A stretch of 40,995 nucleotides of DNA from an uncultured Methanospirillaceae archaeon (GCA_949319355.1 CASGHA010000141.1:1-40995), one strand, 5' to 3'. Shown: positions 1-5,357, counted from the stretch's first letter. Made by a program: numbers and translations. The notes: generated from the letters alone by a model not told the origin.

Positions 1-878
1 CTCCGCCATTCCGCTGCTGATCCGGCGCACGATGCTGTTGCTGGTCGAGGAGATCCGCTTGCTGGAGGCGCGCATCGCCCAGCTGGAGCGGGAGCTCACG
101 GAACTGGCGCGGCACTCGCCCGCCTGCACCACGTTGCTCACCATTCCCGGCATCGGCCTCTTGACCGCTACCGCGATGGTGGCCGCCACCGGCGGCGAGG
201 TGAAACACTTCAAGGACGCCCGCCACTTCGCCAGCTGGTTCGGCCTCACGCCGAAGGAATATTCCTCGGGATCGACGCGCCGGCTCGGGCGCATCTCCAA
301 GCGCGGCGACCGCTACCTGAGGATGCTGCTCACCCATGGGGCGCGCGCCCTCCTGCGCGCAGCAACCCTGGCCCGACAGGCCGGCCGCACGCTCGATGGC
401 TTGCGCCACTGGGCCACCGAAATCCAGGGGCGCACCCACCACAACAAGGCCGCCTGTGCGCTGGCCAACAAGCTGGCGAGGATCTGCTATGCCGTCTTGC
501 GCGATGCCACGCCGTACGGTCTGCCCCAGCCCCGGCAGGCCAAGAAGCTCAACCGCGCGGCCTTTGTCGTGGCGGCCTGAGGCTGTGCCAGGAAACACCG
601 TGATGTTCTTTCCCCAGCGTCTGCAACGAGACTGATCGCCCATCATGGCAAACAGGGTCGCACCCGCACGGACTGACGCCGATAACTCTGCCGGCAGCGT
701 ACCGCTTGCCGCTTGTACCGATTGGCGCGCCGTGAGCAGATTCCATGTCGGCACGGGCCACACAGAGCCCACTCACGATGCCGGATATACGACTGCATGC
801 GCATCCCCTCAGCCATTCCTATCGCTCAGTTTCCTTGCTTTTTGGGGGAGTCCATATACGAACTGTTAGGCAACAATG
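1..878 (+). mobile_element. 3' part of an IS110-family insertion sequence (or other foreign, bacterial-type DNA) running off the left window edge
   Basis: Contains the transposase 3' end (2-580) plus ~300 nt without a convincing ORF. Hand-counted G+C is 68/100 for nt 1-100 and 60/100 for nt 601-700, versus 56/100 for nt 3601-3700. The archaeal pelota frame ends at 879-881. The exact element end cannot be set, since the IS110 family lacks classical terminal inverted repeats. Confidence 0.6.
2..580 (+). CDS. IS110-family (IS116/IS110/IS902-type) transposase, C-terminal ~190 aa; 5' end outside the window
   Basis: Frame is open from nt 2 (SAIPLLIRRT precedes the first Met at 32). A coiled-coil linker (EEIRLLEARIAQLERELTEL) is followed by the typical C-terminal transposase domain: LLTIPGIGLLTATAMVA...FKDARHFASWFGLTPKEYSSGSTRRLGRISKRGDRYLRMLLTHGARA. 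Stop TGA at 578-580. Confidence 0.9.
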   Translation, partial: SAIPLLIRRTMLLLVEEIRLLEARIAQLERELTELARHSPACTTLLTIPGIGLLTATAMVAATGGEVKHFKDARHFASWFGLTPKEYSSGSTRRLGRISKRGDRYLRMLLTHGARALLRAATLARQAGRTLDGLRHWATEIQGRTHHNKAACALANKLARICYAVLRDATPYGLPQPRQAKKLNRAAFVVAA

Positions 879-1289
879 TCATTCTTCAATGATGGCCAAG
901 CCGCGCCGCTTGAGATCTGCCAGGGAATCCAACATGGTCTTCAACGCTTCAGGAGAATGGCGCTCCCACTCTTGCAGTACGCCAACTATCTTAAGGGGTT
1001 GGTGTGTCCCGCGAGCCACACCCTGCTCGATTACCCCGCTTACCCGCAACCGCAGGGCGAAGTCATGGAACTCAACCCTCGTGACGCGGATACCCAGTCT
1101 TACGGGTCGTTTTTCCGCCTTTTCAGGTCGTATCTTGTCAGCCTGGGTCTCTGTTGTCCGGAGCGTCGTTGCAAAGACAAGGTCATCCGGGGATATGAGG
1201 TGGCTCATGTGCCAGAGATCATCGATACTTTCCGGGAACAGCCTGACCTCCCCGAAGGACCTGATGAGGTCGCCGAATTCAGCCTTCAT
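879..1289 (-). pseudogene. pelA: Pelota (Dom34-type ribosome rescue factor), N-terminal domain only; truncated at the junction with the high-GC segment
   Basis: MKAEFGDLIRSFGEVRLFPESIDDLWHMSHLISPDDLVFATTLR... matches the Pelota N-terminal domain pattern. The ORF stops after ...DLKRRGLAIIEE, where the central domain should begin (full-length archaeal Pelota is ~340-360 aa). No pelota-like reading frame exists in 1-878. Confidence 0.75.
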
Positions 1290-3162
1290 CGACTATGTCG
1301 GAACCTCCGGGGGGGATGAATGCTGCGACGGCCTCGGTATTCAACACGGCCTTCCAACCTGCACGCTCGTTCTCCGGTATCCGTTCCCTCAAAGTTCTCG
1401 TCATTTTCCGCGCAATGTCATTCGGTTCAAAGGTCCCGGGCTGGATCTCGAGAGAGACCACCGAGCGTGCCCTGACGACCTCTGGAGGACCCCCTATCAC
1501 CGCCATGTCCGGTTCCTTTGCAAGGCCGACGGAAGCCCTGAGTGGGATGTCCCTGTAGTATTCCCGCTCGCCGCGGACGATGAACGACCCCCTGCTCACG
1601 TACTCCCCTGACTCAGGTGTCTTACTGACCTGGTCGGGACGGACTGCATAGACATCAGCCGAGTGGTGCCCGGCTTTCCAGGCCCCGGAGAACGCTGCTG
1701 CAAACCGGGCTACCTCGTCCATACGTTCCGTCTGCCCTTTCACGATGACAACCGAAGCCCCGTGGACATCTGCATGAAGGAACCGGTCCCTGCCTTCCAT
1801 GTATTTCTTGACCAGCTCTTCGTTCTGGGAAGCGTCCCGTCCTCCGAGGACCAGGGCCCCGTCACTGGTATAGAACCACCGAAACCTGTGAAACCAGCGT
1901 TTTTTCATGGGAGCCGCTTTGCTGGCTGCTTTCTTCCTGACCGGGACAGGCCTGTCCATCGCGGCTTTTGCCCCATCCCGCTTCTTCCTGAACTTCTTGG
2001 CCTGTTCGTAAAACCTGCCGACGTTCTGTTCGATACTCTCACGGACATGGATACGGACCAGTGTCCCTTCAAGTTCAAGGTCTATTGAAGCTTCATCGGG
2101 ATGAACCGCCCGTATCTGCCGGGCCACACCGTCCCCATTTTTCAGGATGGTGGCTATCTCCTGCCAGGAATAGCGTTCCGAGGCTCTCGTGAGGGTACGG
2201 ATAATTTCCGAAACAAGCTGGTAGTTCGCATAGACCGCCTCGGCTGCAGCTTCGCTTTTCGCCGCCTTTTCGTCATACTTCCTGACCGCTGCCTCCTGGC
2301 GGCTGCGGATTATCCCGTCCCGGGTGACCTTCTCCTTCTGCTCGACACTCTTCCTGGGTGTCAAGGGGAAGAATGCCTCCAGGGCGGCCTGGAATGAGGG
2401 GTGGGGTGTTCCTTCAAAACCCGGTACAGGTATGGGGTGCACACCCGTCGGCCCGAGCAGAGGCTGCCTTTCTGCCTTAATCTGGTCTATCAACGAATGG
2501 TATGCCTTATATAGTCCAGGTAAATCAGCCTCTCCCGGGCGGGTTGACTTTTCGACTCCGGCCATCCTGCATACAAGTTCTGCATATGCCCCGCCGAGCA
2601 TCCCGTCAATAGCAAGGACCCTGACCGTTTCACGTGTATCGTTCCGCAGGTGAGCCTTGAACTCCTCTTCTGACAGGAGGGAGAGGTCCTTTCCCGGGTA
2701 CTGGTATACTTCCCCGGGTACGACATCCCTGTCCCTGAACCGGTGAGGTCTCAATGCCCTGACGATCCCGAACTGTTCGTCACAGATGACGATGTTACCG
2801 GCATCGAAGACCTCGATGACCAGGTGGTAGAGCTGGTCCCTTTTCTGAATGCCGATAGTCATGATCCGGGAAAGACCTGCCTGGGAAATTGAAACGATCC
2901 TCCCGCCCGTGAGATTTTTCCTAAGGACCATGGCGAAAGCCGGCGGGACCTTCGGGAGGTCCGGCAGGGCAGTAACCAGGTGGACCCGGCGGCCGGGCTC
3001 GACGAGGAGCAGGTGTTTTCCTGTATCCCTGCTGTTCAGCCTCAACAGGAAGAGTCCACCCGCCCCCTGGTAGCACTTGTCAACCCAGAGCGGGAGAAGC
3101 GGGATCATCTCCGCCACTACGGCTGTGAGGTCGATACCACTCATTCCCTTGCTGGTCGCCAT
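1279..3162 (-). CDS. NFACT-family ribosome quality-control protein (RqcH/Rqc2/NEMF homologue; often annotated fibronectin-binding A-like/DUF814)
   Basis: Long ORF (track 1279..3222). Likely start is ATG 3162 (MATSKGMSGIDL), with 3144 as an alternative. It has an NFACT-N-like N-terminus, a long charged coiled-coil middle, and an NFACT-R/DUF814 signature: FHRFRWFYTSDGALVLGGRDASQNEELVKKYMEGRDRFLHADVHGASVVIVKG. Its stop overlaps the pelota start by 11 nt. Confidence 0.8.
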   Translation of the reverse strand: MATSKGMSGIDLTAVVAEMIPLLPLWVDKCYQGAGGLFLLRLNSRDTGKHLLLVEPGRRVHLVTALPDLPKVPPAFAMVLRKNLTGGRIVSISQAGLSRIMTIGIQKRDQLYHLVIEVFDAGNIVICDEQFGIVRALRPHRFRDRDVVPGEVYQYPGKDLSLLSEEEFKAHLRNDTRETVRVLAIDGMLGGAYAELVCRMAGVEKSTRPGEADLPGLYKAYHSLIDQIKAERQPLLGPTGVHPIPVPGFEGTPHPSFQAALEAFFPLTPRKSVEQKEKVTRDGIIRSRQEAAVRKYDEKAAKSEAAAEAVYANYQLVSEIIRTLTRASERYSWQEIATILKNGDGVARQIRAVHPDEASIDLELEGTLVRIHVRESIEQNVGRFYEQAKKFRKKRDGAKAAMDRPVPVRKKAASKAAPMKKRWFHRFRWFYTSDGALVLGGRDASQNEELVKKYMEGRDRFLHADVHGASVVIVKGQTERMDEVARFAAAFSGAWKAGHHSADVYAVRPDQVSKTPESGEYVSRGSFIVRGEREYYRDIPLRASVGLAKEPDMAVIGGPPEVVRARSVVSLEIQPGTFEPNDIARKMTRTLRERIPENERAGWKAVLNTEAVAAFIPPGGSDIVDEG

Positions 3163-3194
3163 CGAAGATACCAAATTACATATCCTCCGAATGC

Positions 3195-3204
3195 TAAAAA
3201 AATA
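3195..3204. promoter_or_regulatory. A/T-rich TATA-like element (taaaaaaata) in the 50-nt divergent spacer between the NFACT gene and the small membrane protein gene
   Basis: This is the only A/T-rich block between starts 3162 (-) and 3213/3222 (+). Its spacing fits a leaderless or near-leaderless transcript starting near ATG 3222 (+), and/or a short-leader transcript for 3162 (-). Confidence 0.3.
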
Positions 3205-3212
3205 GGCATCTG

Positions 3213-3581
3213 ATGCCGCCAATGACCACTACCACCCCAGCAGTCCCGGAAGAAAAAAAGGACGCAGTTAGCCCCCCCAGGGATAAACACAAGGAATACC
3301 GTGACCGGATTGTAAGGACCTTCCTCGGATGCATGATGGGCATGGTTGCGGGCATCATCTCGTTCGCCGCCGGCGGCTCCCTTCGCGAGGATGTTTTTTC
3401 GACATCCGTCCTCGGCTTCCTGATCATGCTTGCATCGGTTGTCCTGCAAAAGCACGTCTTCTTCCTGATGAGGTGCAGCGGTGACGGCCTCACCAAGAAA
3501 GACTGGTTATATCATGGCTTCATGACCTTCGCGTTCTGGTTCATCACTTGGACACTCCTGATGACCGGAAGGCCCGCCTGA
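3213..3581 (+). CDS. Small membrane protein (three predicted TM helices), possibly EMC6-like; co-transcribed with ABCE1
   Basis: 122 aa with a K/E-rich N-terminus. Hydrophobic helices: IVRTFLGCMMGMVAGIISFAAGG, VLGFLIMLASVVLQKHVFF, LYHGFMTFAFWFITWTLLMT. The stop lies 6 nt before the ABCE1 ATG. The EMC6-like assignment is from memory of Methanomicrobia annotations and is not verified. Confidence 0.6.
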   Translation: MPPMTTTTPAVPEEKKDAVSPPRDKHKEYRDRIVRTFLGCMMGMVAGIISFAAGGSLREDVFSTSVLGFLIMLASVVLQKHVFFLMRCSGDGLTKKDWLYHGFMTFAFWFITWTLLMTGRPA

Positions 3582-3587
3582 TCATTC

Positions 3588-5357
3588 ATGCGTATCGCTA
3601 TCGTTCACAAGGACCGTTGTCACTCGAAAAAATGCGGGACTGAGTGTATCCTGTACTGTCCGAGGGTCAGGACCGGTGACGAGACGGTCGTCATCGGGGA
3701 GGAGGGCAGGGCGGTTATCTCCGAGGAGCTCTGCGTAGGCTGTGGTATCTGTGTTAAGAAATGTCCCTTTGGTGCAATAGACATCGTAAGCCTCCCTGAG
3801 GAGCTCGACCTCCCCACCCACAGGTACGGCAAAAATGGATTTGTCCTCTATGGTCTTCCGGCCCCTGTAGAAGGGAAGGTCACCGGTGTCCTCGGCGCGA
3901 ACGGGATAGGGAAGTCGACGGCTGTCAAAATACTCTCCGGGCAGCTCAAACCGAACCTCGGTTTTGAGGATGCCGGCCAGGAATGGGGTGCGATCCTCAA
4001 ACAATATGCGGGGACGGAACTTTTTGAGTACCTCCAGACCCTGTCTGAGAAGAAGATCAGGGTGGCCGTTAAGCCGCAGTATATCGATTATATCCCTGCC
4101 GTCTTCAAGGGCAATGTCGGCGACCTCCTGAAGACGACCAACGAACGTGGCAGGATGGAGGAGTACGTTGATGCCCTCTCCCTTGGGCCCCTCCTCGATA
4201 CCCCGATAACCACTCTCTCGGGAGGGGAACTCCAGCGGATCGCCCTCACGGCATGCCTCTCAAGGGAGGCTGATTTCTATTTCCTTGACGAGATAACACC
4301 CTTCCTCGATATCCACCAGCGGATGACCGCGGCGAACCTTATCCGGCAGCTCGCCCAGGAACGCCCGATCGTCATCGTTGAGCATGACCTTGCCATCCTC
4401 GACATGCTCGCAGACACGGTGAATGTCGCGTACGGTAAGCCTGCGGCATTCGGTATCATTACCCGCCCGAAAGGGGTCAGGGTAGGGATAAACCAGTACC
4501 TCGACGGGTTCCTCGTCGAGGAAAATGTCAGGTTCAGGGAGCACCAGGTCACCTTTGAGCAGCGGGCGCATGATAAGGGTTCCGACCGTTCCGTACTTCT
4601 CCAGATACCCACGATGACCAAGACCTACGACCGGTTCGGCCTCACGGTTTCGGGTGGTGAAATACGGGCCGGTGAGGTCATCGGGGTTGTTGGTGCCAAC
4701 GGGATCGGGAAGAGTACATTTGCAATGCTGCTTGCCGGCATGACCGAGCCTGATGCAGGTCCCCTCGGGGAGACGGTGAAGATCTCGTACAAGCCCCAGT
4801 ACCTGAAGGCCGAGTCCGATGACACGGTGGAGTTTTACCTCAGGTCATGTACGAACACCTTCTCGACCTCCTATTATCAGCACGAGATCCTCGAACCACT
4901 CACACTCGAACCACTCCTCCAGTCCCCGCTCTCGACCCTTTCAGGAGGAGAGCTGCAGCGGGTGTCCATCGCCGCCTGCCTGTCCCGGCCCGCCGACCTG
5001 TACATCCTGGACGAGCCATCAGCACACCTGGATGTGGAACAGAGGGTGAAGATCACGCGGGTCATCAGGCACCACGTGGATGGGAAGGATGCCGCTGTCC
5101 TTGTAATTGACCACGATATTTACGTGATAGACATCATCAGTGAGCGGCTCCTTGTATTTGAAGGACAACCCGGGATCTCCGGGACGGCAACCGGTCCGTA
5201 CCTGATGAAAGAAGGGATGAACCGCTTCTTAAAGGAACTAGGGATAACGTTCCGCAGGGACAAGAGTGGCCGGCCCAGGATCAACAAGCCGGGCTCTTTC
5301 CTGGACCGTGACCAGAGGTCCCGGGGACAATACTACTATGCCCAGGCTGAGGAGTGA
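3588..5357 (+). CDS. ABCE1: ABCE1 / RNase L inhibitor-type ribosome recycling ATPase
   Basis: N-terminal double 4Fe-4S Cys clusters (CHSKKCGTECILYCP; CVGCGICVKKCP). Two ABC cassettes: Walker A GANGIGKST twice, signature LSGGELQR twice, Walker B FYFLDE and LYILDE. Confidence 0.95.
   Translation: MRIAIVHKDRCHSKKCGTECILYCPRVRTGDETVVIGEEGRAVISEELCVGCGICVKKCPFGAIDIVSLPEELDLPTHRYGKNGFVLYGLPAPVEGKVTGVLGANGIGKSTAVKILSGQLKPNLGFEDAGQEWGAILKQYAGTELFEYLQTLSEKKIRVAVKPQYIDYIPAVFKGNVGDLLKTTNERGRMEEYVDALSLGPLLDTPITTLSGGELQRIALTACLSREADFYFLDEITPFLDIHQRMTAANLIRQLAQERPIVIVEHDLAILDMLADTVNVAYGKPAAFGIITRPKGVRVGINQYLDGFLVEENVRFREHQVTFEQRAHDKGSDRSVLLQIPTMTKTYDRFGLTVSGGEIRAGEVIGVVGANGIGKSTFAMLLAGMTEPDAGPLGETVKISYKPQYLKAESDDTVEFYLRSCTNTFSTSYYQHEILEPLTLEPLLQSPLSTLSGGELQRVSIAACLSRPADLYILDEPSAHLDVEQRVKITRVIRHHVDGKDAAVLVIDHDIYVIDIISERLLVFEGQPGISGTATGPYLMKEGMNRFLKELGITFRRDKSGRPRINKPGSFLDRDQRSRGQYYYAQAEE

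Follow-up and report, generated by a model that had tools for sequence, protein, structure and literature searches.

The 5′ end of a methanogen contig is very probably an inter-domain assembly chimera of pelota and an arr cassette carrying an IS1111-type element

IS1111-type insertion sequences carry subterminal inverted repeats of 11–13 bp, which are extended by 7 bp on the left and by 3 bp on the right, and a long non-coding region is located downstream of their tnp gene (PMC11187229). That article cites Tetu & Holmes 2008 and Post & Hall 2009 for an IS1111-attC group (ISKpn4, ISPst6 and ISPa25), whose members insert at one defined point near one end of the attC sites of integrons. In arr-5 and arr-2 gene cassettes, the inverse core of attC lies within 7 nt of the stop codon. 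On the archaeal side, the names of the database matches indicate that a location of aPelota next to RqcH in Methanoregulaceae is already known. Pelota itself is a near-universal, conserved ribosome-rescue gene. Inter-genome chimeric contigs in MAGs, which result from mis-joins where contigs end at low coverage, are characterized by DNA of foreign composition at the extreme contig end, which terminates in a repeat (IS), by halves that occur independently in other samples and by a true continuation that is found in assemblies of the same strain.

The window examined here, i.e. the whole 40,995-nt stretch of DNA that was analysed, is the entire contig C141 of a MAG consisting of 210 contigs with a completeness of 77.7%. 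Taken at face value, C141 displays a disrupted pelota gene, a bacterial-type RNA-guided IS and a piece of an antibiotic-resistance gene in a methanogen. All three surprises stem from one mis-join, and the left end of C141 is very probably an inter-domain assembly chimera. The feature as originally described is not real biologically; its components, namely aPelota-RqcH, arr-5-like cassettes and IS1111-attC elements, are known.

The composition of the window changes at its 5′ end. The GC content is 0.69 over nt 1–580 and 0.64 over nt 1–990, and the rest of the window displays 0.560 ± 0.021 per 990-nt tile. The G+C counts reported in the original prediction (68 in nt 1–100, 60 in nt 601–700 and 56 in nt 3601–3700) were exact. 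The tetranucleotide distance between nt 1–990 and the rest of the window was 0.49, and all internal tiles remained below this value with a maximum of 0.36. Among the contig ends of the MAG, the 5′ end of C141 ranked sixth by tetranucleotide deviation, and only this end and C83 were high-GC outliers. Comparison of the MAG contig ends by composition demonstrated no further chimeric ends. C83 (nt 1–4477, L107) has about 62% GC over its whole length without a step and reaches up to 0.74 at its 3′ end, compared with 55.6% for the MAG; this contig may be mis-binned.

The truncated pelota gene of the original prediction is a minus-strand ORF at nt 879–1289 encoding 136 aa, which indeed starts like pelota and stops at 879–881. 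Residues 13–100 matched positions 13–102 of the 351 positions of the pelota profile TIGR00111 with 77.2 bits (NCBIfam cut-off 177.65), and residues 95–136 matched positions 90–131 of 131 in the Arr family profile NF033144 (NCBIfam, E 1e-11). According to these profile matches, the ORF is a pelota/Arr hybrid. It does not qualify as a pelota, as its score lies below the cut-off and it does not span the three domains (Pelota_N, eRF1_2 and eRF1_3) over ~340 aa. Moreover, the N-domain loop [DE]xG[SA][YH]HT[LIF]N, which is kept in 125 of 125 pelota relatives, is absent from the window ORF; the ORF reads ARGTHQPLK, and ARGTHQPL was found in none of the 125 relatives. A collection of 15 billion proteins contained the hybrid ORF as 1 member on 1 contig, C141 itself, and an exact look-up of the ORF returned no record. 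The earlier reading had missed that the last 42 residues are Arr. The tail ...DLKRRGLAIIEE, which it quoted as pelota, belongs to an Arr rifampin ADP-ribosyltransferase and forms its C-terminus, as these 42 residues match the end of the complete 150-aa protein P0136 with 100% identity. Pelota had furthermore been thought to be cut after its N-terminal domain at 879; the identity to pelota in fact ends at nt 1016 (residue 91), within the N-domain. That no frame of nt 1–878 continues pelota was confirmed.

The bacterial part of the contig

The 5′ end of the window is formed by an insertion sequence (nt 1–858). As predicted from the sequence originally, an IS110-family transposase C-terminus is located near the start: nt 2–580 on the plus strand code for the last 192 aa of a transposase of the IS110/IS1111 family (DEDD). 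It matched positions 181–343 of NF033542 with 166.8 bits, exceeding the cut-off of 140 for family membership, and also Pfam Transposase_20 (PF02371) with an E value of 2e-28. The 5′ part of the gene is cut off by the contig start. A near-identical IS copy on the soil contig L118 possesses the N-terminal DEDD (RuvC-like) domain (PF01548). The closest relatives of the transposase, with 76–84% aa identity, belong to Dechloromonas, Propionivibrio, Azonexus, Aromatoleum and other Rhodocyclaceae/Burkholderiales, and the enzyme is by this similarity of putative betaproteobacterial type. The MAG contained no other IS110 match.

Nucleotides 581–858 on the plus strand comprise the 3′ non-coding region and the right end of the IS, as deduced from similarity to related IS copies. 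The subterminal inverted repeat GGGGGAGTCCAT is located at 844–855, the 3-nt terminal extension ATA adjoins it at 856–858, and DNA similarity to about 50 related IS copies extends to 858–873. More than 40 full-length relatives of about 1450 bp start with TGATGGG+ATGGACTCCCCC on the left and end with GGGGGAGTCCAT+ATA on the right. The same left end is present in L118 and lies outside the window itself. Thus, the terminal repeats correspond to the IS1111 layout, with the right end in the window and the left end in the relatives and in L118. The non-coding region, which covers 278 nt from the stop codon at 580 to the IS end at 858 and is conserved across the relatives, likewise has the length expected for this group.

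The right flank of the IS reads CGAACT-GTTAGGC and stands directly after the arr stop codon. Related IS copies are flanked by N6-GTTAG(G)C on the right and by ...TTGAA/TCGAC on the left, and the window IS is accordingly placed at a fixed point in one attC arm. With the IS1111-attC group it shares the DEDD-type C-terminal domain, a 12-bp subterminal repeat, a 3-bp right extension and insertion in attC. In contrast to that group, only the 3′ 858 nt are present in the window, and the nearest copies are unnamed elements, 76–84% identical, in Rhodocyclaceae and related genomes. The only DNA match to a named element was a 43-nt stretch in an ISPa25-family gene, which was obtained in a distant-mode plasmid search that otherwise yielded weak IS110 matches; megablast of nt 1–1010 against plasmids gave no match.

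The attC R″ arm of the arr cassette (nt 859–878, minus strand) was assigned from the layout of L118, L100 and L103 and from the flanks of related IS. Starting from the arr stop codon, the minus strand reads TGA-CATTGTT-GCCTAAC-AGTTCG followed by the IS. The inverse core GCCTAAC corresponds to nt 865–871 and is located 7 nt from the stop codon. The environmental arr cassettes L100 and L103 show the same attC layout after their stop codons, and in L118 the attC site is uninterrupted (GCCTAAC AGTTCG TTCAAGCC ... GTTGGGC). The adjoining arr 3′ end (nt 879–1007, minus strand) consists of the last 42 codons and the stop codon (879–881) of a gene for an Arr-5-like NAD(+)-rifampin ADP-ribosyltransferase and lacks codons 1–108. 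P0136 belongs to a 90%-identity cluster containing Arr-5, and the 42 Arr residues of the window are 60% identical to plasmid Arr-2. Both the position of the inverse core relative to the stop codon and the C-terminal 42 aa are therefore alike in the window and in arr-5/arr-2 cassettes. In contrast to these cassettes, the window contains only the last 28% of the gene; the complete cassette is present in an array on the soil contig L118. The fragment does not reach Arr membership (44 bits with NF033144 against a cut-off of 130), and the catalytic N-terminal part is absent (NF033144/PF12120). Because only the last 28% of the gene is present, the window arr cannot confer resistance. No other arr was found in the MAG. 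A search of JGI metagenome contigs for the exact 58-nt arr pattern gave no match, and a protein-based scan of these contigs retrieved arr relatives with 43–67% identity, all of which matched the Arr part only.

Public runs were compared by means of assembled contigs, not raw reads. Runs X1 to X4 originate from one study, X1 being the likely source run, X5 is derived from soil and X7 from a digester; the habitat evidence comes from X5 and X7 only. The soil contig L118 (3523-nt Logan contig; X5 record 15) matched the window over nt 1–869 and 858–1007. Over nt 858–1007 it shows no differences from the window, and past 1007 it continues into the rest of arr (FPGNPTQSYR...). L118 thus carries a complete arr and no archaeal DNA. 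Because the IS end adjoins its normal attC target, the bacterial piece as assembled in C141 is coherent alone. Judged by sequence, it represents a known arrangement in which an IS1111-attC-type element would occupy the attC site of a cassette with an Arr-5-like gene.

The cassette array of L118 comprises the Arr-5-like arr, a GNAT acetyltransferase gene and an ORF of unknown function encoding 176 aa, each followed by an attC site, and a near-identical IS1111-type element occupies the third attC. A GTTAGGC core site is located 40 nt upstream of arr, and the opposite strand carries an ORF of 78 aa at the contig end. In X1, an IS end likewise stands before the attC of arr, with 16 inner nt (AGTCGGTTGCTTTTGC) that are not identical to nt 828–843 of the window. 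From this difference, a second variant of the same IS family appears to be present in the same attC in X1. The arr attC site was empty in X2 and X5.

The archaeal part and the junction

The archaeal part of C141 is anchored by rqcH (NFACT; nt 1279–3222, minus strand), which matched NF041120 RqcH_arch with 632 bits (cut-off 400). Codons 1–91 of pelota, an aPelota/Dom34 homologue, are located at nt 1016–1289 on the minus strand, as indicated by TIGR00111 and by identity to L115. The stop codon of rqcH and the start of pelota overlap by 11 nt (1279–1289), and this rqcH-pelota arrangement with overlap is common to the window, the same-genus genome G001 and the public same-species contigs L108–L117. 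The gene pair stands downstream of ABCE1 and a gene for an EMC6-like membrane protein.

Comparison with these relatives revealed where the archaeal sequence ends. G001, which contains an intact 341-aa pelota adjoining rqcH, shows 88–89% DNA identity to the window, and the similarity ends at nt 988, as it does for other family members. The contigs L108–L117 are about 96–99% identical to the window from nt 988 to as far as 4289. The full-length pelota proteins P0122–P0125 are identical to the window ORF over residues 1–91; after residue 91 they read DIGSHHTLNIEPGY, whereas the window reads ARGTHQPLKIVGV. L115, a 1661-nt Logan contig, exhibited 0 mismatches to the window over nt 1016–1655. It departs from the window at positions 1015, 1013, 1012, 1007, 1005, 999, 998 and 990, then everywhere beyond, and encodes a complete 341-aa pelota. 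Nine further public contigs with 96–99% identity continue into true pelota as L115 does. Taken together with the 125 pelota relatives, the comparisons with G001, P0122–P0125 and L108–L117 place the end of the archaeal sequence at nt 1016, inside codon 91. In its length, its extent and its number of mismatches, L115 corresponds to record 13 of X2, a run from the study that also includes the best holder of the window. As seen from this contig, the archaeal strain of the window evidently has an intact pelota elsewhere. A full-length pelA with the same 5′ sequence elsewhere had been proposed originally as a sign of a chimera; L115 is such a copy, although the shared stretch covers 274 nt instead of the 411 nt suggested.

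The remainder of pelota, for which the original prediction had advised a search of the assembly, was not found in the MAG. In L108, the conserved gene order is rqcH, pelota, DUF1922, Sec61beta and adenosine deaminase. The MAG contig C102 (nt 1–1639, L119) starts inside the adenosine deaminase gene, 2.1 kb past the archaeal end of C141. The missing 2.1 kb with the pelota remainder, DUF1922 and Sec61beta is an assembly gap, and the pattern fits low coverage. The window shares the first 91 residues and the 11-nt rqcH overlap with full-length pelota genes of the same species. It differs from them in that its ORF is missing the last part of the N-domain as well as the entire central and C-terminal domains, which reflects the contig and not the organism.

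Between the two parts lies a junction patch, CCCGCGAG (nt 1008–1015), which matched neither parent exactly in a base-by-base comparison with L108–L117 and the arr continuation. Positions 1008–1011 and 1014 are as in true pelota, 1015 is as in arr, and 1012–1013 correspond to neither. The IS is hence not fused to pelota, as had been supposed, but is separated from it by the attC arm (859–878), 129 nt of arr (879–1007) and the 8-nt patch. Next to the patch, over nt 991–1007, 13 of 17 positions are the same in arr and in true pelota. For any one given register, such an agreement has a probability of about 1e-5 to 1e-4 by chance; the join therefore sits at local similarity and does not represent a random ligation. 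An exact 17-mer at 991–1007 shared by both genes (THQPL in each) was considered and rejected, as true pelota differs at 998, 999, 1005 and 1007. The pelota-arr fusion is in frame, which is expected in 1 of 3 cases by chance. Unitigs end at 1016 in X1 and at 1007 in X2, i.e. at both edges of the patch, which could mean that a few junction-bearing reads exist. Plain de Bruijn assembly at k >= 21 does not alone explain the 8-nt patch.

Origin of the join

The two halves of the contig occur separately in public runs. X5 holds nt 1–1007 of the window at a depth of 12 and nothing beyond, and X7 holds the archaeal part only, from 991 onward. X2 contains the intact pelota of the identical strain. In X1, bacterial and archaeal pieces are present at a similar depth of about 3–5x. 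None of the four runs examined yielded a contig bridging 999–1015. The contigs of X1 leave 683–843 and 999–1015 without cover, which carries no weight for or against a join.

These observations are best explained by a chimeric contig end. Nucleotides 1–1007 come from a bacterium, probably a betaproteobacterium. They would comprise the 3′ two-thirds of an attC-targeting IS1111-type IS, placed in the attC of a cassette with an Arr-5-like gene, and then the final 42 arr codons. From nt 1016 onward, the contig is chromosomal DNA of a methanogen of the Methanoregulaceae and begins within codon 91 of pelota. Both parents, covered about 2–5x and broken off at the join, were very probably connected in silico or in the sequencing library at the 13/17 likeness between arr and pelota, for example by a single chimeric or erroneous read that linked two dead ends of an assembly graph with low coverage. 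As the join happens to be in frame, it would create a fake 136-aa ‘truncated pelota’. The identities of the parts and the position of the break are apparent from the alignments, and we infer that the join, including its step, arose during assembly or library preparation and not in a cell. A chimeric end fits because the halves occur apart and differ in composition, the same strain has an intact pelota, no contig bridges the halves, the hybrid is unique, the MAG lacks any other IS110, arr or pelota remainder, and C102 provides the syntenic continuation. The similar depth of both pieces in X1, the unitig ends at the patch edges, the patch itself and the in-frame fusion speak against it.

A chimeric join had been one of the two options of the original prediction; it is supported, but its position is 1008–1015 and not ~879. 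Like other inter-genome chimeras in MAGs, C141 carries DNA of foreign composition at the extreme contig end, which ends in an IS, its halves are found independently in other samples and its true continuation is present in same-strain assemblies. Unlike such chimeras, its joint lacks an exact shared k-mer and instead shows the 13/17 similarity and 8 nt fitting neither parent.

The other option had been that a bacterial-type IS110 element had recently inserted straight into pelA, the remainder of the gene lying beyond the IS. Such an event would account for an IS fragment less than 300 nt from the end of a truncated ORF and for a MAG without the rest of pelota. However, the right end of the IS at 858 adjoins the attC arm CGAACT-GTTAGGC, which the family specifically targets, as seen in more than 40 related copies. 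Between the IS and pelota, 129 nt code for part of arr, and the pelota identity stops at 1016, not at the IS end. In addition, the same strain contains an intact gene (L115). As the IS terminus adjoins attC/arr instead of pelota, we assign this option a negligible probability. Natural allelic variation is given a negligible probability as well. Here, the pelota of the strain would itself encode VARGTHQPL, the exact 17-mer 991–1007 would be shared with arr, and only the sequence up to 990 would be foreign, as could be read from the contig alignment, in which the archaeal sequences of X2 and X7 reached down to 991 and the contig with arr extended to 1007. Against this, the 7 differing letters of the archaeal contigs are all located at 998–1015 while 1016–1655 is identical, and G[SA][YH]HT is conserved at this site in 125 of 125 relatives; in any case, the contig is chimeric under either reading.

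A genuine recombinant formed in vivo deserves more weight than these two and is nevertheless very improbable. According to this explanation, the IS and the arr 3′ end were integrated in pelota by illegitimate, microhomology-guided recombination with filler bases in a subpopulation of the methanogen. Joints of illegitimate recombination often adjoin local similarity, and here the join lies beside the 13/17 stretch, the 8-nt patch could be filler, both sides have a similar depth in X1, and the unitig ends of X1 and X2 coincide with the patch edges. Moreover, the evidence against a recombinant comes from contigs only, not from raw reads. That evidence includes the intact gene of the same strain (0 mismatches over 640 nt) in X2, which belongs to the same study, a joint bridged by no contig of four runs, and a hybrid found in no other contig of the 15-billion-protein collection. 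There is no second junction, and the piece is located at a contig end that breaks off inside the IS. Furthermore, the bacterial piece occurs near-identically in soil (X5) without the archaeon, and the prior is low for a methanogen that gains betaproteobacterial integron DNA and loses a conserved ribosome-rescue gene. If the recombinant is real, mobile resistance-element DNA would have passed recently from a bacterium to an archaeon, and a methanogen with disrupted pelota would be viable.

Under the preferred explanation of a chimeric contig end, nt 1–1015 should be trimmed from the MAG and do not provide evidence for archaeal resistance genes, a bacterial IS or loss of pelota. Flagging the mis-join in C141 guards against false reports of inter-domain transfer, of an archaeal resistance gene and of pelota loss.

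A conserved motif in the non-coding region of the IS

The set of more than 40 attC-targeting IS copies is clean and may serve the study of seekRNA/bridge-RNA guides. An Rfam scan of nt 1–1100 revealed nothing meaningful, and the IS non-coding region belongs to no curated family. This region contains a near-invariant motif, GCCGGATATACGACTGC, at about 779–795, which is found in the window and in the loci L016–L091 and, by its sequence, looks like a candidate seekRNA/bridge-RNA guide segment. The motif repeats the IS end (ATATA) together with the bases that open the right target flank (CGA...). Divergent subgroups show joint changes of the motif, the IS end and the flank: Terriglobia copies carry the motif AGATACGGA, the end CCAGATA and the flank CGGACA, and Bradyrhizobium copies carry the motif ATATACGTC and the flank CGTC.
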